Source of the DNA: Candidatus Altimarinota bacterium
Lineage (GTDB): Bacteria > Patescibacteriota > Gracilibacteria > CAIRYL01 > GCA-016699755
Length of the DNA stretch: 64,000 bases
NCBI GenBank assembly: GCA_963664295.1
Contig: OY760935.1
Location: 256,001 to 320,000, forward strand
Direction of reading: 5' to 3'
The position numbers and the translations under genes were made by a program. Within the stretch, counting starts at the first letter, position 1. Each line of letters begins with the position of its first letter. This document shows positions 6,710 through 54,850 of this stretch, one piece after another. A model generated the notes under the pieces. That model was given only the letters and a program-made list of their open reading frames with translations. It had not been told where the DNA came from and did not search any database.

Positions 6710-7798
6710 GTGAAAAATTCAAGTCATTTCGTGGCTCAAAATCAAGAAAAAACCACCAAAGCAGGTGTTTTTTTGGCAAAAAGAATTTTAGGACGACCAG
6801 AATGGGCAAAAACAGTGTTATTAAAAGGGGATTTAGGAGCAGGAAAAACAACTTTTGTTCGTGGTTTTGCTGAAGGTCTTTCAAAAAAAATAACAGCAAA
6901 AAGTCCCAGTTTTACAATAATCGCAGAACATAATTTTACATTCGAAGCAGAGGAGTGGACTTTAGTCCATGTTGACCTTTATCGCTTGGGTAATAATTAT
7001 GATTCGGAAATATATAATTATCTTGAAGAAAAAATAAAAGAAAAAAATAAAATTGTAGTTATTGAATGGGCAGAAAACTTAATCAAAGAATTTGAATTAC
7101 CAAAAAATAGGATTGAAATTAGCTTTGAGCACGGAAAAAATGAAAATGAGCGCATAATAAAGCCAATATTTTTTGACCCAGGCGTACCAAGCTTGGAGCA
7201 AGTGGAGCAACTTTCCAATGAATTTCACACTCCTTTTCATGTGCGCAATCACGAAAAAGGAGTAGAAAAAGTAGCCAGCCAGTTTGCCAAAAATTTTCTA
7301 AAAAATGGAGTTATTGTGGATTTAAATTTAATAAAAACAGCCTCTTTGTTGCACGATTTGGTAAGAATTGTGAATTTTAAAGAAATTATTTTTGATGATT
7401 TTTGCGAGGAAGAGAAAATAACAGATGAAAAAATTTGTTTTTGGAATAATATTCGAGAAAGCCACGGGCACATGCATCATGGTGAAGCCGCAAGTGAGAT
7501 TTTGCGTGAACGAGGTTTTATTTCCTGTGCTGATGTAGTTGAAAGGCATAAGTCCAGGGCTATTTTTGAAGAACTTCGCACATTTGAGGAAAAAATTGTT
7601 TATTTAGCAGACAAAAAAGTGCTTCATGACAAAATTGTCACCATAGCCCAAAGGCTGGAAGACGGCAGAGTGCGCCACAATCTCAAAAACGAGGAATTGC
7701 AAAAAAAATTGGAAAAAGGGATTACTAATCTTCGTGATGAACTTTTGGCTCTTGCAGGTTTTGCGAATGAAGAGGACTTTGATAAAGAATTGATTTAA
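6710..7798 (+). CDS. tsaE: t6A biosynthesis ATPase TsaE fused to a C-terminal HD domain
   Basis: GDLGAGKTTFVRG, KSPSFTI, HVDLYRL, VIEWAE (TsaE); then HVRNH..LLHDL..HH..H..LADK (HD). Confidence 0.88.
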   Translation: MKNSSHFVAQNQEKTTKAGVFLAKRILGRPEWAKTVLLKGDLGAGKTTFVRGFAEGLSKKITAKSPSFTIIAEHNFTFEAEEWTLVHVDLYRLGNNYDSEIYNYLEEKIKEKNKIVVIEWAENLIKEFELPKNRIEISFEHGKNENERIIKPIFFDPGVPSLEQVEQLSNEFHTPFHVRNHEKGVEKVASQFAKNFLKNGVIVDLNLIKTASLLHDLVRIVNFKEIIFDDFCEEEKITDEKICFWNNIRESHGHMHHGEAASEILRERGFISCADVVERHKSRAIFEELRTFEEKIVYLADKKVLHDKIVTIAQRLEDGRVRHNLKNEELQKKLEKGITNLRDELLALAGFANEEDFDKELI

Positions 7799-7811
7799 TC
7801 ACACAAAAACT

Positions 7812-8213
7812 AGATTTGCAGTCCGATAATGACAAGTTTTTTCGTCATTCCAAGGAGTTCGTCAAAGGTGAACGACGCAATCTATTTTCTGTCATCCTGA
7901 GCGAGCCTTTAGGCGAAGCGAAGGATCTCCCGTAGTCATTGTTGTTTAAATTACCGAGGCAGTATCCCTAGTTCAGTCATTCTGAACTCGATTCAGAATC
8001 TCCCAGTGCCATTACTACACAATTACCCAAGTTATAATTTGAGCAAATGTCCAAGGAGATTCTTTGCTTCTTCTTCTTTTCTTTTTCTTCGCTAAAGTTA
8101 CGAAGGATTCGCTCAGAATGACAGGAGGGAAATACTTAAGGTAGGACTTGAGCAAATGGCAAAGGAGATTGCGGATCAAGTCCGCAATGACAGATAAAAA
8201 AGCTCAGAATGAC
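7812..8213. repeat. array of GTCAT/ATGAC-tagged palindromic (REP-like) repeats
   Basis: gtcatcctgagcgagcctttaggcgaagcgaaggatctc, gtcattctgaactcgattcagaatctc and gagattgcggatcaagtccgcaatgac; the same family of units recurs at five other loci. Confidence 0.9.
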
Positions 8214-8303
8214 AGCGAGTAATCGACTAACTTTCTTAGGAGTGATAGAGTGAAATTTACTTATTTACCTTAAATTAAGATAAAAACACAAAAAATACAT
8301 AAG

Positions 8304-8337
8304 AAAAAAACCCAGATTCACGTTATGTGTCTCTGGG
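8304..8337 (-). terminator. intrinsic terminator
   Basis: Minus strand cccaga-gacacataacgtgaa-tctggg followed by a T7 tract. Confidence 0.65.
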
Positions 8338-8452
8338 CCAATTGTGGATCGATCGAGTCTATTACCTTGCAGGTATATTCTCTTTATCGTTCAATGCCTT
8401 TTCAGGCGTTGAAGATTTGCAAGTTGATAAACCAAGCAATCCACAATTGGCC
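8336..8452 (-). ncRNA. candidate structured RNA (unclassified)
   Basis: 16-bp closing stem ggccaattgtggattg/cgatccacaattggcc enclosing hairpins ttcaacgcct-GAAA-aggcattgaa and tacc-tgcaa-ggta; lies between the orphan stop codon and a terminator. Confidence 0.5.
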
Positions 8453-8484
8453 TGAGTTAGGCGGTCGGTTGTCAAAGAAAAAAA

Positions 8485-8958
8485 TTAGTTCTTGAATGCG
8501 ACGGTTCTTTTGAAAACAATTCCGCCGCACTTTTTTGTATTGTTGTGTACGATGGACATGGACATGGTCATATCCGTATCATTCCTGAGCAGTATAATGA
8601 AATATTCTGCGATTTTGTAGCCTCCGTCATCAAATCTGATGTGGTAGGTAGACGGCACTGTTATCTCCTCTCCGGGCGGAGCAAAAACCTTTATCTTTTT
8701 CATGTCGTTGTCCAAGATTCCTTTTTCAATCTTGCGACATTCCTGCCCAACGCCTTTTTTGTTCGTTACGTGGGGCATTACTGACACGGTTGTGCCTTCC
8801 GGCAGAAATTCCACAGCCCTCTTAGATAAGAGAGCAAGCGCTTCTTCCGCATTCAGCGTTGTGTTGGCGGCGCTGGTGGTGGTGGTGGTGACGGCGCTGA
8901 TGCCGATGATAACGACAAAAAAGATTGCCTTGAGAATTGCGATTGTGTTGTGTTTCAT
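8485..8958 (-). CDS. secreted hypothetical protein (GC-richer orphan)
   Basis: 157 aa with a signal-peptide-like N-terminus; strong SD AAGGAGGAG before the ATG; visibly higher GC than the flanks. Confidence 0.8.
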   Translation of the reverse strand: MKHNTIAILKAIFFVVIIGISAVTTTTTSAANTTLNAEEALALLSKRAVEFLPEGTTVSVMPHVTNKKGVGQECRKIEKGILDNDMKKIKVFAPPGEEITVPSTYHIRFDDGGYKIAEYFIILLRNDTDMTMSMSIVHNNTKKCGGIVFKRTVAFKN

Positions 8959-9089
8959 AGTGCTCCTCCTTGGTGAGTTGGGTTGTTGCGCGTAATTGCG
9001 CGGGTTGTGTTGTAAAGATGTTGTTTTTTCCTTTGACCACCAATTGAAACTCTAATTTTAAAATTCCAATTTGGTGATCAAAACCGATG

Positions 9090-9143
9090 TTGTCAAAGAA
9101 CAGGTTGATGCAATTTAACATCTTTTTTTATATTTGTCAAGAG
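9090..9143 (-). promoter_or_regulatory. sigma70 promoter plus boxA-like site
   Basis: TTGACA (9140-9135), 17 nt, TAAATT with extended-10 TG, then TGTTCTTTGACA (9102-9091); near-identical to 13677-13729. Confidence 0.75.
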
Positions 9144-9153
9144 AAAAAAACTT

Positions 9154-9757
9154 CGTTATCCTGAGCGAGCCTTTAGGCGAAACGAAGGATCTCCCGTTGT
9201 CATTACTGTTGAATTACCTAAGGCAGGATTTGAGCGCATGGACAAGGAGATTGCGGGTCGTAGCCCGCAATGACAGCCCAAAAAGTCCGCAATGACAAAT
9301 ATGATGTCATCCTGAGTTTAATTCAGGATCTCCCGTTGTCATTACTACACAATCACCCATGGCAGGACTTGAGCACATGGACAGGGAGATTGCGGATCAA
9401 GTCCGCAATGACAAATATGATGTCATCCTGAATTTAATTCAGGATCTCCCGCAGTCATTGTTGTTGAATTACTTAAGACAGGACTTGAGCAAATGGACAA
9501 GGAGATTGCGGATCAAGTCCGCAATGACAAGACAGGACTTGAGCAAATGGACAAGGAGATTCTTCGCTCCATTTCATTCCGCTTAGAATGACAGCAAGGG
9601 TGTATTTACGCTCAGAATGACACCTCTTGCCTCCCGAGATTGCGGGTCAAGCCCACAATGATACCCCAAAAAGCCCACAATGACACCTCCCTAAAAAGCC
9701 CGCAATGACAAAATGGATTGCCACGCCCTTCGCCCTTGGCGTTGTCCTCAGAGTGAC
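9154..9757. repeat. array of REP-like palindromic repeats
   Basis: Multiple gtcatcctg...ggatctc and gagattgcgg...ccgcaatgac units with a conserved linker. Confidence 0.9.
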
Positions 9758-9784
9758 GAATATTCTTAGATATAAAACAACAAT

Positions 9785-10468
9785 TTAATCACCATTTTGT
9801 TTTACCTCTTTGCTGATTTCTTTTTGAAAACTGTAAACGCCTAGTATTAAAAAGGCAAAAACAGCACCAAAAAGAATAAAAAACAAATTAAAAAGAAAAT
9901 TAAGATAAATTTTACCAATTTCAGCATAGGACCCTTTTCCTAAGAGAATTCCAAAAAAACTAACAAAAGGCACAAGAGAAACAGCAATAGCAACACCAAC
10001 AAGATGTCCAACTCCAGTATCTTTTAACCATGAATACACACTAGCAAAGCCAGAAACAAAAGCAGTAATAAAAAACAAATCGTAATAAGAAGCGAATTTT
10101 TCGAAAAAATAATCTGTATTAATTTCAAAGCCTGCAAAAATCAAGGCTTTAATCAATAAAGCAGAGACCAAAATAACAAAAAAAATACTTCCAAAAAGAC
10201 TTTTGCTCGAATAAATCATTAAATCTTTGTTGCGAGCAGAAATGCCCGCCGCAAAAGCAAGAACAGGATTAAGCAAAGGAGCAAGCACCATTGCGGCGAT
10301 CAAAATAGCAGTATCATTTAAAATAATTCCCAAAGTAGCCAATATTGCAGACAATCCACACATTACAAAGAAATTAAGCTTTAATTTTGACTCTTCTATT
10401 AAGTTAGCAATAGCATTTTCCATTGTTTTTGCCTCGTGAAAATGTTTTATGATCCTTTTAATAATCAT
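9785..10468 (-). CDS. DUF389 (TIGR00341-type) membrane protein
   Basis: LSAILATLGIILNDTAILIAAMVLAPLLNP and LVGVAIAVSLVP motifs; multi-TM. Confidence 0.85.
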   Translation of the reverse strand: MIIKRIIKHFHEAKTMENAIANLIEESKLKLNFFVMCGLSAILATLGIILNDTAILIAAMVLAPLLNPVLAFAAGISARNKDLMIYSSKSLFGSIFFVILVSALLIKALIFAGFEINTDYFFEKFASYYDLFFITAFVSGFASVYSWLKDTGVGHLVGVAIAVSLVPFVSFFGILLGKGSYAEIGKIYLNFLFNLFFILFGAVFAFLILGVYSFQKEISKEVKQNGD

Positions 10469-10722
10469 TATTTTTTATAAATCATATAATTATAATATAA
10501 AACAGACTTAATCACAAGGTCGTCATGCTTATAAATTTAACAACTTTATTTTTTTCAAAAAAATCAAGTCCGACCCATTCGAGCTTCTTTTTGGCTACAA
10601 AAAAAAATATAAAAATTCTAAATGTTGATTAAAATATATTGCATATATGAAAAACAGATCAGCAAAAGCTTATATTGCAACTTGGCAAAAGTATGCTTTT
10701 GTGTATAATAAATAAGCTAAAA

Positions 10723-12339
10723 ATGAAAAAATTTGAAAAACACCTAAAAAAGGCCTTACCAATAATAAAAAAAGTAATAAAAAATACAGCTTTACCGCTA
10801 TTATTGCTCATTTTTGTATGGTTTTTTTATATCAATAATTCACAAATAAAAATAAATCTAAAAAAAATTGACAATTTAACAGGCTCAGTTAATGCATTAG
10901 TGGAAGAAAATCATCAATTGCGTTTATTTGCCTTTGAGTTATGCACTAGTAGTAATATGCTGGGAGATTATTTGTTTTCAGAAGAATATAATTGCGCGCA
11001 GTTTTTTCCACAAATTGCAGAAGAGCAAGAGGTAAATGTCTCTTTGGAAAGCCAGTTTATATCATTTGTGAACACTTTTTTTGTTCAAGGGCAGGTTGAA
11101 GAACAAGCAGAAAATCCAGAAGAAATAGACGTAGAAACCAACGAAGAAAATGAAGTTTTAATCAATAATATAATTAGCGTAAGCAAAAGTGCTGATTTTT
11201 CCTCTAGCTTAAGCGCAAATCTTGCAGAACAAAGAAAAGCAGATATGCAAGCCATTGTGCAAAATGACAAAATAGCCCTTTATCTTGCTGATTTTGGTCT
11301 TCATCTTGAGCAGGAAAATGAAAACTTACTTAAATTAAAAAAAGAGGAAGAGATTTTAGCTGATATTTATTGGGATCAAGATTCTCTTGATGTAAAAGTT
11401 AATGACCTGACCAGACAGGCAATAATTTCTCTTGGTACTTTTAATTTGGTAAACAAAAAAGCCCAATATATTACAGAAAAATACAGCACATTTGATTTGG
11501 AAGCATTTTTGCAAAGTGTTGATAAGCTTGAAAAACACAATGCTTCTCTGGAGAATTATCTTATCTTAGGTCGTCATGGGGCTAATTTAGATACTATGAT
11601 TTTAGCTTCTGTTGATTTTAAAAAACAAAGAATTACCTTAGTTTCTATTCCTCGTGATTTATGGCTTAATTCACGCAAATTAAATTCATATCATGCTATT
11701 TATGGCATGCCGGTATTTAAACAAAAAATTGAAGAAATTACAGGGCAAAAAATAAAACATTATGTTCTTATTGATATGATGGCTTTTGTTGAGGTTGTTG
11801 ATATTTTGGGCGGTATTGATTATGAGTTTACAGAGCCTTTAATAGATCCATCTTATAGAACAGTGGATAATGGCATTGAAGGCACTCTTTATTTTGCAAA
11901 AGGTGAACATCATTTAAACGGCACTCAAGCCTTAAGAGTTGCAAGAACTCGCCATACTTCTAGTGATTTTGCTAGGGCAGGGAGACAGCAAGAAATATTA
12001 AAAGCAATAAAAAGCAAAATAGACGAAGAGGGGAAAGCAAAGTCTTTTATCAATATGCTTCCGATTTTGATGGAAAAAGTAGAAACAGATTTTGCGCTTC
12101 ATGAGTTAATTCCTTTAGTTATGAAGTCTAAAGATTTTGAGCTTAGAACAGGAAAAGTAATGTCCACTTCAAATATTTTGGTTTCGGAAATGATTGAGGT
12201 GACTCCTGTGACTGTTAGTGTTGAGCCTGTTGCTGAGGGCGAGGAACAGCCTGTTATGAAAGCTTATGCTCTTAAACCTCGTGATGACGATTGGGCATTG
12301 ATTGCTAAGTTTATTTTGAGTGCGATTTATTCTGACTAG
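10723..12339 (+). CDS. LCP (LytR-CpsA-Psr) family protein
   Basis: DTMILA..LVSIPRDLW..KLNS..GGID..LNGTQAL..ARTRH.SDFARAGRQQ; N-terminal TM; start placed at ATG 10723, after a TATAAT. Confidence 0.92.
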   Translation: MKKFEKHLKKALPIIKKVIKNTALPLLLLIFVWFFYINNSQIKINLKKIDNLTGSVNALVEENHQLRLFAFELCTSSNMLGDYLFSEEYNCAQFFPQIAEEQEVNVSLESQFISFVNTFFVQGQVEEQAENPEEIDVETNEENEVLINNIISVSKSADFSSSLSANLAEQRKADMQAIVQNDKIALYLADFGLHLEQENENLLKLKKEEEILADIYWDQDSLDVKVNDLTRQAIISLGTFNLVNKKAQYITEKYSTFDLEAFLQSVDKLEKHNASLENYLILGRHGANLDTMILASVDFKKQRITLVSIPRDLWLNSRKLNSYHAIYGMPVFKQKIEEITGQKIKHYVLIDMMAFVEVVDILGGIDYEFTEPLIDPSYRTVDNGIEGTLYFAKGEHHLNGTQALRVARTRHTSSDFARAGRQQEILKAIKSKIDEEGKAKSFINMLPILMEKVETDFALHELIPLVMKSKDFELRTGKVMSTSNILVSEMIEVTPVTVSVEPVAEGEEQPVMKAYALKPRDDDWALIAKFILSAIYSD

Positions 12340-12365
12340 GTATAGGTAGTTGGTAAGAAATAGTG

Positions 12366-13590
12366 TGTCATCCTGAGCGAGCCTGTGCTCTGTCATCCTG
12401 AGCGAGCCTTTAGGCGAAGCGAAGGATCTCCCGTTGTCATTACTGCACAATTACCTAAGGCAGGATTTGAGCACATGGACAAGGAGATTCTTCACTCCAT
12501 TTCACTCCGCTCAGAATGACAGCAAGGGTGTGTTTTTCGCTCAGAATGACACCTCTCGAGATTGCGGGTCAAGCCCGCAATGACAATCCAAAAAGTCCGC
12601 AATGACACCTCTCGAGATTGCGGGTCAAGCCCGCAATGACAATCCAAAAAGTCCGCAATGACATGATTCTCTGGATTATCGGATCAAGTCCGATAATGAC
12701 AAAAAAAGAGGCAGGTTCCTCGCAATGACAAATATGATGTCATCCTGAGTGAGCCTTTAGGCGAAGCGAAGGATCTCCCGTTGTCATTACTGCACAATTA
12801 CCTAAGGCAGGATTTGAGCAAATGGACAAGGAGATTGCGGGTCAAGCCCGCAATGACAATCCAAAAAGTCCGCAATGACATGATTCTCTGGATTATCGGA
12901 TCAAGTCCGATAATGACAAAAAAAGAGGCAGGTTCCTCGCAATGACAAATATGATGTCATCCTGAGTGAGCCTTTAGGCGAAGCGAAGGATCTCCCGTTG
13001 TCATTACTGCACAATTACCTAAGGCAGGATTTGAGCAAATGGACAAGGAGATTGCGGGTCAAGCCCGCAATGACAATCCAAAAAGTCCGCAATGACATGA
13101 TTCTCTGGATTATCGGATCAAGTCCGATAATGACAAAAAAAGAGGCAGGTTCCTCGCAATGACAAATATGATGTCATCCTGAGTGAGCCTTTAGGCGAAG
13201 CGAAGGATCTCCCGTTGTCATTACTGCACAATTACCTAAGGCAGGATTTGAGCAAATGGACAAGGAGATTGCGGGTCAAGCCCGCAATGACAATCCAAAA
13301 AGTCCGCAATGACATGATTCTCTGGATTATCGGATCAAGTCCGATAATGACAAAAAAAGAGGCAGGTTCCTCGCAATGACAAATATGATGTCATCCTGAG
13401 CGAGCCTTTAGGCGAAGCGAAGGATCTCCCGTAGTCATTACTGCACAATTACCTAAGGCAGGATTTGAGCAAATGGACAAGGAGATTCTTCGCTCCATTT
13501 CACTCCGCTCAGAATGACAGCAAGGCTGTTTTTTCTGCTCAGAATGACACCTCCTGCCTCCCGAGATTGCGGGTCAAGCCCGCAATGATA
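12366..13590. repeat. large REP-like array containing four tandem 217-bp units
   Basis: gagatt anchor at 12614, 12831, 13048, 13265 and 13482 (period 217); also a 56-bp duplication at 12558/12614. Confidence 0.95.
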
Positions 13591-13676
13591 ACCTTAGCGT
13601 AAAGCCTTTTTCTCTGTACAAAAAATTTGTTCATAAATCCATAAAACAATATGAAGACCTGATTTTTATAAATTAA

Positions 13677-13729
13677 CTCTTGACAAATATAAAAAAAGAT
13701 GTATAATAAATCAACCTGTTCTTTAACAA
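13677..13729 (+). promoter_or_regulatory. sigma70 promoter plus boxA-like site
   Basis: TTGACA (13680-85), 16 nt, TATAAT (13702-07), then TGTTCTTTAACA (13717-28), one mismatch from the rrn boxA TGCTCTTTAACA. Confidence 0.8.
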
Positions 13730-13731
13730 TT

Positions 13732-13829
13732 CGTTTAAACAAAGAGTGGATTGCCTGCTTTCAAAAAAAACACCACGCTCTAGCGTGAGTGCTTTCACGC
13801 AAAGTAAGCAATCCATCTCTTTGCAAACG
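13732..13829 (+). ncRNA. candidate structured 5' leader RNA
   Basis: Stem cgttt..caaagag-tggattgc / gcaatcca-t-ctctttg..aaacg; internal alternative hairpins cacgc/gcgtg and gcgtga/tcacgc. Confidence 0.5.
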
Positions 13830-13990
13830 CGGTTTTCATTTTTTTACTAACTGGATTTAGTCAGCTTTCCCGCCATTATTCTGCGTTTTTTTCCTCGTTG
13901 TATTTTACCCATTTCCCCATTGACGGAACCACACATTAACTTAGATTGCACGACCCACAGAGGCGTGCGCATCCAAAAAGGAGATTTACC

Positions 13991-15001
13991 ATGAGCAAAT
14001 TCACCAAGTTTTTCGTTTTTATCGTTTTGTTGCTTGCTACATGCAACCTTGCGCAAGCGCACTTTCCCTACAAAAGGTTCGATGGCTTTAGGCTTCAAGC
14101 CTTTGGTTATTGGGAGGCCCGGAAAATCCCTAAAAGGATTGAAAGGCTGTCGCTGGTGTCCTTGGCGGACAGGCCCGCCATAGAAATGACTTTTCTGTCA
14201 TTTCATGACAAAGTGGCCATGTTGGCATATGACCCAAACGCCAACCTTTCCACAAAGAACGCAAGGGCGTTGGCCTCTTTCCATGGCCACACATTAACCC
14301 TTGATTTGCATGATCCGGCAACTGAGGTTGCTAGGAAAATTGCGAAGTTCAAGGGCGATTGTTTGGAGTTGGACTTTTATGACAACCCGAGCGTTGAGGC
14401 TGCCAAGGCATTCGCAACTTTTAAGGGCGAGATGTTGGAGGCGAAGTTTAGGGAGAAGCCGACCATTGAGGTTCTTAAGGCACTGTTCAGCTTTGGCGGC
14501 AAGACGCTGAAAGTTAGGATCCCTAATAATCTGCAGTCTGACATTGCATCTGCCATTGCTGCTTTTGGCGGCAATGAGCTGAAGGTTGTCTGCGGTAAAC
14601 TGACCGTTGAGGCCCTTAAGGCGTTGTCCGGCTTTGGCGGCAGTTCACTTTCTGTCACGGAGCACAGTGCGGAGCATCAGCTTACAGCCCTGCACGGAGA
14701 AGAGATTGCTGCTTTCAATGGCGATCATCTGAAGCTCAGGTTGCGCAAACAGCCTGACGAAGACTTTTTTAAGGCTTTGACCAAGAGTTTTTGCGGGCTT
14801 ACAATTGACGCCGAAATCTTGGATTGTAATCGGCCGATTGACCTCAATAACTTTGTTGTCAACGGAGGACCAGCAGTGAGTCTCAAGCTTTATCAGACCA
14901 CTGAGGAGCCTTTGGAAATCATTCCGCCGACAGAATTGTATGATAGGAATAAAATTTCAGTTACGATCAACTACGCCTACCAGGGCGTTCCGTTTCCGTA
15001 G
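13991..15001 (+). CDS. secreted protein with ~24-aa LRR-like solenoid repeats (GC-richer orphan)
   Basis: SD AAAGGAGA before ATG 13991; signal peptide ending AQA; repeats A.ALA.F.G..L.L....P..E. One counted 60-nt line is 52% GC, versus 27% in a counted purA line. Confidence 0.8.
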   Translation: MSKFTKFFVFIVLLLATCNLAQAHFPYKRFDGFRLQAFGYWEARKIPKRIERLSLVSLADRPAIEMTFLSFHDKVAMLAYDPNANLSTKNARALASFHGHTLTLDLHDPATEVARKIAKFKGDCLELDFYDNPSVEAAKAFATFKGEMLEAKFREKPTIEVLKALFSFGGKTLKVRIPNNLQSDIASAIAAFGGNELKVVCGKLTVEALKALSGFGGSSLSVTEHSAEHQLTALHGEEIAAFNGDHLKLRLRKQPDEDFFKALTKSFCGLTIDAEILDCNRPIDLNNFVVNGGPAVSLKLYQTTEEPLEIIPPTELYDRNKISVTINYAYQGVPFP

Positions 15002-15030
15002 GTATACATTTGCAAAGAGATGGAATTACG

Positions 15031-15067
15031 GCACGGGGCGGTTTATCCGCCCCTGCTAGTTTTTTTA
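15031..15067 (+). terminator. intrinsic terminator
   Basis: ggggcgg-tttat-ccgcccc stem followed by a T tract. Confidence 0.75.
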
Positions 15068-15074
15068 TTGTGTT

Positions 15075-16412
15075 TTAATAAATTCCCAAATACTCATCAA
15101 CTTCCCAATCTGAAACATGCAAACGATATTTGTCTGCTTCGGCTTGTTTGGCTTGTAAATATTTTGCATGAGTTTGTTCACCAAAAACATCCAGAGCTAT
15201 TTTGCTACCTTCAAATTTTTTCAAAGCCTCTGGCAAAGAATCAGGCAAGGTGCGCACACGCATTCTTTGAGCTTTTTTATCTGTAAATTCATAAATATTT
15301 TCTTCAATAGACTCAGGTGGAGTCATTTTTTTCTCTATACCATCAAGTCCAATTGCAAGCATGGTTGCAAAAGCAAGATAAGGATTAGAAGAAGAATCAG
15401 GACAGCGAAGTTCGCAACGAGTGGCCTGAGATTGACCTTTTAAGAAAATAGGCACACGAATAAGTGCAGAGCGATTTGTTTGTCCCCAAGCTACATAAAC
15501 AGGCGCTTCATATCCTGGCACCAATCTTTTATATGAATTTATTAGAGGATTTGTCACAGCTACAATTTCATGAATATTGCTCAATTGACCAGCAATAAAT
15601 TGTAGTGCTGTTTTTGATAATTTATATTTTGTATTTTTTTCATCATAAAAAGCATTTTTATTATTTTTAAATAAAGATTGATGGACATGCATGCCAGAGC
15701 CATTAATTCCTGCAATTGGCTTAGGCATAAAAGTTGCATGCAAGCCCCATTGACGAGCAACAGCCTTGAGAGCGGTTTTAACAGTAATCACAGCATCGGC
15801 TTGAGTAATTGCATCAGAATATTTAAAAGCAATTTCATGTTGAGATTCAGCTACTTCATGGTGAATAGATTCAACATCAATGCCCATCTGAGAAACAACT
15901 TCGCTCATTGCTTGGCGAATTGGTCCTGCTTTATCCATTGCGTAATCAAAATAACTAGCACGATCATGGGTAATTAAAGCTGGAGCACCATCTTCGTCGG
16001 TTTTAAAAAGAAAAAATTCTAACTCAGGTCCAACAAAATAATTATCAAAGCCCATTTTTTGTGCTCTTTTTATTTGTTTTTTGAGAATTTGCCGAGGATC
16101 GCCATCAAAAGGATTGCCATCTGGCAGAAAAACATCACAAATAATGCGAGCAACAGCAGAGTCGCCATTGCTTTCCCAAGGAACAAGAGCAAATGTGTCT
16201 AAATCTGGTTTAAGATACATATCAGACTCATAAATACGAGCAAAACCTTCAATAGAAGAGCCATCAAACCAGATGTTGTTTTCAAGAGATTCTTTAAGCT
16301 TGCTAACAGGCGTTGTCACGCTTTTGACTGTTCCTAAAAGATCACAAAATTGGAAATTAACAAAGCGAACATTGTGTTCTTTACAGAATTTTAAAATTTG
16401 CTCTTTGGTCAT
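15075..16412 (-). CDS. glnA: glutamine synthetase type I
   Basis: FDGSSIEGF, GPELEFFLF, HHEVA, ATFMPKP, NGSGMHVHQSL, SYKRLVPGYEAP, NRSALIRVP. Confidence 0.98.
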   Translation of the reverse strand: MTKEQILKFCKEHNVRFVNFQFCDLLGTVKSVTTPVSKLKESLENNIWFDGSSIEGFARIYESDMYLKPDLDTFALVPWESNGDSAVARIICDVFLPDGNPFDGDPRQILKKQIKRAQKMGFDNYFVGPELEFFLFKTDEDGAPALITHDRASYFDYAMDKAGPIRQAMSEVVSQMGIDVESIHHEVAESQHEIAFKYSDAITQADAVITVKTALKAVARQWGLHATFMPKPIAGINGSGMHVHQSLFKNNKNAFYDEKNTKYKLSKTALQFIAGQLSNIHEIVAVTNPLINSYKRLVPGYEAPVYVAWGQTNRSALIRVPIFLKGQSQATRCELRCPDSSSNPYLAFATMLAIGLDGIEKKMTPPESIEENIYEFTDKKAQRMRVRTLPDSLPEALKKFEGSKIALDVFGEQTHAKYLQAKQAEADKYRLHVSDWEVDEYLGIY

Positions 16413-16414
16413 TT

Positions 16415-16499
16415 TGTACAGAAAAATTGTAAATTATGTACGAAATTTATGCTCATTTCATACATAAATCAAGTACATTTTGTACATTTTTTATGTACA
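16415..16499. promoter_or_regulatory. candidate operator repeats TGTACA-N7-TGTACA in the divergent glnA/purQ intergenic region
   Basis: TGTACA-gaaaaat-TGTAAA (16415), TGTACG-aaattta-TGCTCA (16437), TGTACA-tttttta-TGTACA (16481). Confidence 0.4.
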
Positions 16500-23166: not shown

Positions 23167-23327
23167 GTTGTATAAAAAATTTGTACAATAATTTTTGTTA
23201 TAAAAATAATTATTTTGTGTCTTTTTGTTGCTTTTTCCTTATTTTAAGATTTTTTTGTTTTATATTTCTTTGTTTGTCATAAATATCCGGATATCCGAAG
23301 AGAGCTTGCTCCTCAGGGGTGCCTTTT

Positions 23328-23582
23328 TCTGAACGAGCGTAGCGAAGTGAAGGATCTCCCGCAAGCATTATTACTTGATTACCAAGGCAGGACTTGCACG
23401 AGTGGACAAGGAGATTCTTCGCTCCATTTCATTACGCTCAGAATGACAGCAAGGGTGTGTTTTTTGCTCACAATGACACCTCTTGCCTCCCGAGATTGCG
23501 GATCAAGTCCGCAATGACAAGATAGGACCTGAGCGCATGGACAAGGAGATTCTTCGCTCCATTTCATTACGCTCAGAATGAC
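23328..23582. repeat. array of REP-like palindromic repeats
   Basis: gagattcttcgctccatttcattacgctcagaatgac twice; gagattgcggatcaagtccgcaatgac. Confidence 0.9.
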
Positions 23583-23598
23583 AGAAAAAAGGGTGCCT

Positions 23599-47677: not shown

Positions 47678-47733
47678 TTGTTTTTATTTTTTGTTATTAT
47701 GAGGAGTCAGCCGTGGCGGAAAGGATTTTTTTT

Positions 47734-48220
47734 GGTCATTACTGTTGAATTACCTAAGGCAGGACTTGAGCAAGTGGACAAGGAGATTCTTCGCTCCATT
47801 TCATTCCGCTCAGAATGACAGTAAGGGTGTGTTTTTCCGCTTAGAATGACAAAAAAAAGAGGCAGGCTCGCTCAGAATAACACCTCCTGCCTCCCGAGAT
47901 TGCGGGTCGTAGCCCACAATAACAACCCAAAAAGTTCACAATGACAAATATGATGTCATCCTGAATTTAATTCAGGATCTCCCGTAGTCATTACTGTTGA
48001 ATTACCTAAGGCAGGGCTTGAGCACATAAACAAGGAGATTTTTCGCTCCATTTCATTTCGCTCAGAATGACAGTAAGGGTGTGTTTTTTCGCTCAGAATG
48101 ACAAAAAAAAGAGGCAGGCTCGCTCAGGATGACACCTCCTGCCTCCCGAGATTGTGGGTCGTAGCCCACAATGACAACCCAAAAAGCCCACAATAACAAC
48201 CCAAAAAGTTCACAATAACA
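47734..48220. repeat. array of REP-like palindromic repeats
   Basis: Two diverged composite units carrying the same GTCAT/ATGAC-tagged palindromes. Confidence 0.9.
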
Positions 48221-48270
48221 CCCTAAAGCTCTTACAATGATATTTTAAACAATGCGTTACTATAAATAAT

Positions 48271-54587: not shown

Positions 54588-54850
54588 GGACTTGCTCAGA
54601 ATGACAGTAATAGTGTGTCATCCTGAGTGAGCGTAGCGAAGCGAAGGATCTCCCGTAGTCATTACTGTTGAATTACCTAAGGCAGGACTTGAGCGAATGG
54701 ACAAGGAGATTCTTCGCTCCATTTCACTCCGCTCAGAATGACAGTAAGGGTGTGTTTTACGCTCAGAATCAGCCTCCCGAGATTGCGTATCAAGTCCGCA
54801 ATGACACCTTCAAAAAAAGTCCGCAATGACAAAAAAGCTCAACAATAACG
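54588..54850. repeat. array of REP-like palindromic repeats
   Basis: gtcatcctgagtgagcgtagcgaagcgaaggatctc, linker, gagattcttcgctcc...cagaatgac. Confidence 0.9.

Follow-up and report, generated by a model that had tools for sequence, protein, structure and literature searches.

Why should two unrelated protein genes of one bacterium stand behind nearly the same promoter and boxA, a signal otherwise expected in ribosomal RNA (rrn) leaders? The question is raised by a 64,000-nucleotide stretch of a Candidatus Altimarinota genome (GCA_963664295.1, contig OY760935.1, positions 256,001 to 320,000; hereafter the window), in which an earlier note had described two such blocks, here copies a and b. 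Both lie where the note had placed them, with 26 nucleotides the same, a divergent -10 region and then 19 of 20 positions the same (blastn 48/54, E ~1e-12), and the 12-mer that it had read as boxA agrees with the boxA of this genome's own 16S and 23S leaders. The genome is a single contig of 1,215,430 bases (33.5% GC, 100% complete, translation table 11) from a class that includes orders reading UGA as glycine (code 25). The earlier reading covered only the head of a longer unit; downstream lie a hairpin, a Shine-Dalgarno (SD) site, a post-stop trailer and a terminator. The full order is a sigma70 promoter, boxA, a 24-39-bp hairpin, an SD site, an orphan open reading frame (ORF), a trailer complementary to the hairpin and a terminator-like end. 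We consider it very probable that this layout, which we call a cassette, is a functional RNA unit.

The promoter-boxA pattern is found at seven sites in the genome, against one for a reversed control: C1:265140 (copy a), 269680 (copy b), 619089, 574210, 332870, 364370 and 779191. Two further copies, ahead of ORFs at 169400 and 87631, came from the lists of SD sites and of G+C content at third codon positions (GC3). Since the copies are dispersed over the genome and number more than two, a simple local duplication is ruled out. Eight units carry an ORF and the ninth has no clear one; this last copy (G000:C1:779191, minus strand, L059) has promoter, boxA and hairpin and no ORF of at least 60 aa by the caller used, and may be either a cassette in decay or a unit of RNA alone. 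Copies a and b share the best-matching promoter block of the family (45/51), pairwise identities being 35-45 of about 50 positions (b-d 44/50, a-e 42/51). In both window copies boxA begins 9 nt past the -10, and within these 9 nt there is no boxB. The boxA copies are 0-3 nt off the genome's own 16S/23S boxA, and equally off the E. coli and B. subtilis consensus (PMC13753749; this and the other papers cited below as background were accessible in part). What they lead into are ORFs, not rRNA. The single 16S and 23S-5S genes are located elsewhere and are unlinked (G000:C1:568657-570160 and 1134527-1137725), and both have a boxA and a processing stem of their own; in the 16S leader, boxA lies about 3 nt ahead of that stem. 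The proposal that the block is a reusable promoter module therefore survives in part: in a and b, one block does precede unrelated hairpins (48/100 identity) and unrelated ORFs. A swappable module of 54 bp is, however, too small, since three copies are diverged paralogues that have kept the whole leader and each trailer pairs with its own leader.

The hairpin behind boxA was present in all seven own copies tested, compared with 0/56 shuffles and 3/189 promoters lacking boxA. Elsewhere in the class, 20 of 59 matches with a good -10 had such a hairpin (shuffles, 12/472), as did 7 of 30 with a weak -10. The four type-1 hairpins covary, with double changes in 9 of 29 pairs, and the sense strand folded better than the antisense strand in 28 of 29 class hairpins. 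A role of the hairpin as terminator was rejected, no U-run following it in copies a, e and f. Rfam covariance models gave no credible match in window positions 7000-16000 or at five own loci. Complementarity to the 3' arm of the hairpin and the bases behind it lies directly past or across each stop codon. Cognate leader-trailer pairing reached the 95th percentile of swapped pairs in 27 of 57 units, where about three were expected; these units are the loci that have both a hairpin and a complete ORF, and some of them are chance matches or carry a wrongly called ORF. The 27 divide into 25/43 units of this class and 2/14 elsewhere, and the own copies account for 6/7. Circularisation by RtcB was discarded as a candidate, rtcB not being found in the genome.

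The translation signals of the cassettes are as distinctive as their leaders. The genome's 16S tail is without CCTCC, the canonical anti-SD, a loss published for part of the Parcubacteria (accessible text of PMC9297842). Canonical SD sites precede 6 of 870 first ATGs, fewer than the internal background (69/4684), and a boxA leads six of the 12 ORFs that have a strong SD. In each of the seven leader SDs tested, pairing favours the canonical tail over the cell's own, which still pairs with most of them at -4.2 to -6.4 kcal/mol; a motif matching the own tail is used by 0/870 first ATGs. A CsrA site was considered and dropped, as csrA was not found in the genome. GC3 is 0.44-0.60 in seven of eight cassette ORFs, against a genome median of 0.22 and 0.13-0.29 in ribosomal-protein and elongation-factor (EF) regions; the cassettes take ranks 1-4 and 7-9 of 942 ORFs and one ranks 18th, in a list made with an ATG-only caller in which ranks 5-6 seem to be shadow frames. 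Those of the cell's own genes that are highly expressed are low in GC3 and lack an SD. The paralogues retain high GC3 although 59-75% of their four-fold sites have changed, and in 21 of 25 other units GC3 exceeds that of the neighbours. Four-fold-site divergence between G119 and G046 is 0.41-0.44 in cassette genes compared with 0.63-0.68 in their neighbours, a lowering not seen in G087/G169.

Each unit is a single gene of 104-382 aa ending in a terminator. ORF b and the ORFs at 617756 and 572932 are paralogues (26-33% identity), to which ORF a is unrelated. Among 7998 candidates scored, ORF b had one outside homologue, at 27% identity. Its structural model (pLDDT 76, from a three-sequence alignment) resembles leucine-rich repeat (LRR) solenoids weakly (E 4e-4), and the protein is predicted to form a beta-alpha repeat, LRR-like solenoid. 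In the ESM Atlas it falls in unnamed clusters at 0.90 with low recognition; ORF a had no usable match there and none in Pfam or NCBIfam. Pfam left 29 of 32 scanned ORFs without a match, 32 of the 40 ORFs behind hairpins having been scanned. By a crude hydrophobicity rule, 5/6 own ORFs have signal-like starts versus 19/119 control ORFs; in the class set the same rule gave 10/19 with a hairpin and 11/28 without.

The pattern recurs in 69 of 201 genomes of the class. A scan of all species returned at least 118 loci; among the matches listed, 24 of 116 scored had a hairpin, one of these being a 16S leader, and the 14 hairpin loci in named records comprised 12 labelled as candidate phyla radiation (CPR) and two labelled Gammaproteobacteria. 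The Gammaproteobacteria labels of L143, L151 and L154, genomes of 0.8-1.1 Mb, two of them with ORFs like those of Patescibacteria loci, are probably wrong. Syntenic cassettes occur in G119/G046, G087/G169 and G609/G610, and in the first pair (L419, L420) three boxA-led cassettes are interleaved with housekeeping genes within 5 kb. Many other matches sit before rRNA, tRNA, tmRNA or riboswitches: tmRNA or tRNA genes in Patescibacteria (L052, L091, L093, L146, L121), S-adenosylmethionine riboswitches directly downstream in four WOR-3 records and one unnamed (L140, L153, L155, L200, L202), and cobalamin riboswitches in Omnitrophota (L126, L149, L166, L182). Viral matches had a hairpin in 2 of 40 distinct cases and mostly lie ahead of tRNA genes; in IMG/VR (L278-L336) most of the 40 place promoter and start-site boxA 7-26 nt ahead of tRNA genes of phages (Glu, Gln, Leu, Ile), sometimes doubled within 730 nt. 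Searching 60 relatives with copy b by blastn gave no match of element length, and a metagenome scan with the type-1 leader gave 34 matches, none with a promoter. BoxA before protein genes is known in gammaproteobacteria, at 0-7 per genome and at most 50 bp from the start, according to the accessible part of PMC5725501; a literature search outside which most subscription papers fell turned up no account of the present layout in Patescibacteria.

As for the factors that could act on boxA, nusB is encoded here, directly ahead of rnc (G000:C1:206075-206904, rpmF upstream). Across the phylum, 29 of the 30 best-scoring loci (L241-L270) have rnc behind nusB, 27 of them within 400 nt, which may be inherited gene order; nusB is present in 120/121 genomes and rho in 27/121. 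The earlier note had supposed that these mRNAs recruit the Nus antitermination complex. In the usual sense of antitermination this found no support, since neither rho nor a SuhB-family gene was matched in the complete genome (controls positive in 9/14 for rho and 14/14 for SuhB), and because no rho was found, simple antitermination does not explain the units. An origin from a retron or diversity-generating retroelement in the studied genome was likewise set aside: no reverse transcriptase (PF00078) was matched there, the control being positive in 3/14.

Taken from sequence, these features suggest that the cassettes are dispersed pre-rRNA-like units whose mRNAs would be folded closed and translated by a standard-code, SD-reading ribosome, probably that of the host; we favour this reading tentatively, at a likelihood a little short of even. 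The observed layout would have the cell's own RNA polymerase start about 3 nt ahead of boxA. NusB-S10 on boxA could then tether the 5' end to the RNA exit channel during folding of the hairpin, as in E. coli rrn work, where the accessible parts of PMC8632103 and PMC10250234 describe the complex as holding the 5' end near that channel and so letting leader meet trailer. Once transcribed, the post-stop trailer, whose complementarity is observed, is predicted to pair with the hairpin 3' arm and with the unpaired bases that follow, looping out the ORF much as a leader-trailer helix closes the 16S rRNA. RNase III might cut this helix as a candidate further step; rnc is encoded and the hairpin stems are long enough for the enzyme, but they show no enrichment of its E. 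coli motif. The closed RNA would finally pass to the host, which would make and export the protein. A host destination is proposed because SD sites and codon usage, joined by the genetic code in the UGA=Gly relatives, suit a ribosome unlike the cell's own. The wider claim, that Patescibacteria send NusB-loaded, helix-closed mRNAs in rRNA format to host ribosomes for secreted and membrane proteins, as interspecies mRNA effectors, is to us somewhat less likely than not; such effectors would be identifiable in sequence from their boxA, an SD of host type and use of the standard code.

If a foreign ribosome reads the cassettes, copies in UGA=Gly genomes should keep the standard code. The pattern is rare in code-25 genomes (9/204 and 8/141 genomes, with 5 and 2 control matches), and a looser pattern in 37 of them came out near chance, only two already-known loci of 30 being real. 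Six of the seven SD-flagged matches have at most one TGA. Among glycine codons of boxA-led code-25 genes, TGA makes up 1/58, 0/32, 0/75, 0/86, 1/96, 0/61, 0/51 and 0/47, figures that come from related, not independent, genomes and for which few neighbouring genes supply the baselines of G609/G610, G183 and G495. The first is the gene of G040, set against 611/929 in 39 sampled ORFs of that genome, and its lone TGA comes 19 codons before the end. Homologues in G183, G495 and G402 have boxA, TGA-free bodies and foreign GC3 (0.40-0.45); a fourth, in G486, is TGA-free with no leader visible at the contig end. In G495 a TGA is followed by matching trailer and terminator, so that code-25 read-through would overrun the transcript end. 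The genus g310 (G602, G609, G610) has homologues 32-44% identical, with boxA and an SD-like site, no long hairpin and genome-like GC3; theirs are the counts 0/75, 0/86 and 1/96, and the lone TGA, in G610, is where the homologues stop. Two boxA-led code-25 genes, in G610 and G495, thus appear to stop at UGA. The g310 proteins are lipase-like, with a signal peptide and a tail of the type IX secretion system (T9SS) type, above the Pfam cut-off in G602 and below it in G609; CPR bacteria are not known to have a T9SS.

Several results weigh against translation in the host. Type IV pili and ComEC are reported from a related lineage in the accessible text of bioRxiv 2024.03.08.584096, but we know of no RNA export route. 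One SD-flagged code-25 match (L399) is TGA-rich, with 20, and of the eight matches without SD three are TGA-rich, three have one or two TGA and two have none; highly expressed code-25 genes such as EF-G likewise shun TGA. The canonical anti-SD is kept in 10 of 20 class genomes and missing from 10, several of the keepers carrying cassettes, and GC3 is not above that of the neighbours in 4 of 25 units. At the first ORF, leader-trailer pairing is weak outside this class (2/14 units); with long windows only a and b clearly exceed shuffled trailers, and the 60 hairpins scored with the table of PMC6212723 (Table S4) show no enrichment of the E. coli RNase III motif (26/60 above shuffle, p=0.11). On co-folding, most copies keep the local hairpin over the full trailer helix, with a net gain of -1.7 to -9.4 kcal/mol, and the switch from hairpin to trailer is therefore predicted only. 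Gene transfer, moreover, would yield the same foreign SD, GC3 and code. The cassettes could be mobile and self-contained, derived from code-11, SD-using donors (possibly other CPR) and expressed in the carrier cell, with SD, GC3 and code as leftovers of the donor and with hairpin and trailer merely stabilising the mRNA. We regard this as rather unlikely, although several points speak for it: the patchy distribution (4/96 and 3/141 genomes), presence also in lineages that keep the anti-SD, unrelated cargo behind one promoter block and the foreign GC3 in G183, G495 and G402. The UGA=Gly genome G540 has multi-gene islands (almost) without in-frame TGA (L408:8925-16105 and L417:10357-14684), and the G040 protein has many non-CPR homologues, its family being widespread in Bacteroidota at about 50% identity; in a quick tree the CPR copies fell outside the named Bacteroidota clade and did not form one resolved clade. 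However, transfer accounts badly for SD, codon usage and matched trailers outlasting the deep divergence of paralogues and syntenic orthologues: in all three near-saturated paralogues GC3 is still high, the SD is present and the trailer matches the leader of the same copy, and three genome pairs share cassettes in synteny. Nor is a donor visible, given ORF b's single outside homologue, or a reverse transcriptase; the g310 genes have no Gly-TGA despite their genome-like GC3, and the lower four-fold divergence in G119/G046, though not in G087/G169, also fits badly.

Alternatively, the whole cycle could run inside the CPR cell along a dedicated route, with the mRNAs under the control of Nus factors and RNase III, on the model of the lambda nutL-N leader. 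Initiation behind the long structured leader would be made possible by a residual pairing of 4-6 bp with the own 16S tail, or by a protein that recognises the purine motif, and the closed loop would help stability or ribosome recycling. The own 16S tail does pair with most sites, native structured RNAs (tmRNA, tRNA, riboswitches) follow the same promoter and boxA, nusB and rnc are linked, and Nus factors repress translation from an upstream boxA in suhB and lambda N, as the accessible part of PMC5725501 has it. This explanation nevertheless seems unlikely to us: no first ATG uses the own-tail motif, csrA was not found, the cell's own highly expressed genes combine low GC3 with no SD, and neither the T9SS tail nor the stop-position TGA of G610 and G495 is explained. 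Very improbable, finally, is a short strong promoter with a boxA for recruiting the antitermination complex, put to repeated use before arbitrary genes. It accounts for a boxA equal to that of the own rrn leaders, an encoded nusB and the block common to a and b with their different cargo, but not for hairpin, trailer, SD and codon signature, and the units are single genes with terminators in a genome where rho and suhB were not found.

If host translation is right, it would be an unrecorded bacterium-to-bacterium delivery of mRNA; the leader would tag candidate host-acting genes, and codon usage and secretion tails would hint at the identity of the host. Even under the rival explanations, the cassettes point to a second expression grammar in cells that gave up the SD system and to a use of NusB in a phylum that has mostly lost Rho. 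In the UGA=Gly lineages a single peptide could put the question to the test, by showing whether or not the protein ends at TGA.

Coordinates of the features of copies a and b in the window.
Feature	Position	Strand	Details
Copy a shared block	9090..9143	-	-35 9140-9135; -10 9117-9112 (17-nt spacer); boxA 9102-9091
Copy a leader hairpin, 24 bp, type 2	9031..9083	-	z -5.0; kin of the C1:364370 copy
Copy a 3' arm and A-rich single-stranded extension, pairing with trailer	9024..9041	-	Score 37, equalled by 0/56 swapped trailers
SD of ORF a, canonical	8965..8971	-	-11.4 with canonical tail, -6.4 with own 16S tail
ORF a, 157 aa, hydrophobic N-terminus	8485..8958	-	GC3 0.58, rank 2 of 942
Copy a trailer, immediately past stop	8467..8484	-	About 17 bp complementary to leader arm
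Copy a 3' trailer, second long hairpin	8336..8452	-	Also behind the other type-2 copy
Copy a intrinsic-terminator-like hairpin and U-run	8304..8337	-	From sequence
Copy b shared block	13677..13729	+	-35 13680-13685; -10 13702-13707 (16-nt spacer); boxA 13717-13728
Copy b leader hairpin, 37 bp, type 1	13732..13829	+	z -4.9; covaries with three other copies
Copy b 3' arm, pairing with trailer	13812..13827	+	Score 38, equalled by 0/56 swaps
SD of ORF b, canonical	13978..13983	+	-8.7 with canonical tail, -4.2 with own tail
ORF b, 336 aa, signal-peptide-like N-terminus	13991..15001	+	GC3 0.57, rank 4 of 942; two paralogues in genome
Copy b trailer	15009..15024	+	16/16 complementary to 13812-13827
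Copy b intrinsic-terminator-like hairpin and U-run	15029..15066	+	From sequence

Both cassettes adjoin clusters of REP-like palindromic repeats, which are abundant in the window (7888-8214, 9144-9685, 12356-13605, 23318-23587, 47690-48242 and 54606-54821) and include a 217-bp tandem array at 12614-13564. On the copy b side, contigs from sequencing runs aligned over 13570-16450 showed no strain variation. Positions 6710-7798 encode a TsaE-HD domain fusion.

Among known systems, type I toxin mRNAs such as hok and H. pylori aapA3 form 5'-3' long-distance pairings, and the cassettes resemble them in a leader whose local hairpin could give way to a 5'-3' helix when transcription is finished. They differ in their ORFs, which at 104-382 aa are not those of small toxins, in the presence of boxA and in a paired arm that, in the own copies, ends upstream of the SD. 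RNase III relieves the repression of lambda N. The lambda pL-nutL-N leader and the E. coli suhB boxA, as described in the accessible part of PMC5725501, likewise set a boxA and a structured leader before a protein gene; the cassettes depart from both in their many dispersed copies, their post-stop trailer and an SD mismatched to the own 16S. Neither a boxB nor an N protein was identified, no search aimed at an N-like protein having been made, and the hairpins, at 24-39 bp, are not boxB-sized. Phages of code-25 Gracilibacteria and Absconditabacteria showing compatibility with code 11, alongside integrated prophages that are TGA-rich, have been published (PMC10746230, in its accessible part); such phages share TGA-free genes in code-25 cells with the cassettes, which instead stand singly in the chromosome, each gene behind a leader of its own, and twice have TGA at the stop position. 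The rrn leader, in the accessible accounts a boxB-boxA-boxC array with a Nus complex and a 16S helix cut by RNase III (PMC10250234, PMC8632103), is like the cassettes in placing boxA before the strand that pairs with the trailer, and nusB and rnc are adjacent in the studied genome. The cassettes differ from it in a start-site boxA without room for boxB and in rho and suhB not having been found, in enclosing an ORF instead of rRNA, and in a pairing arm that would first be held in a local hairpin.

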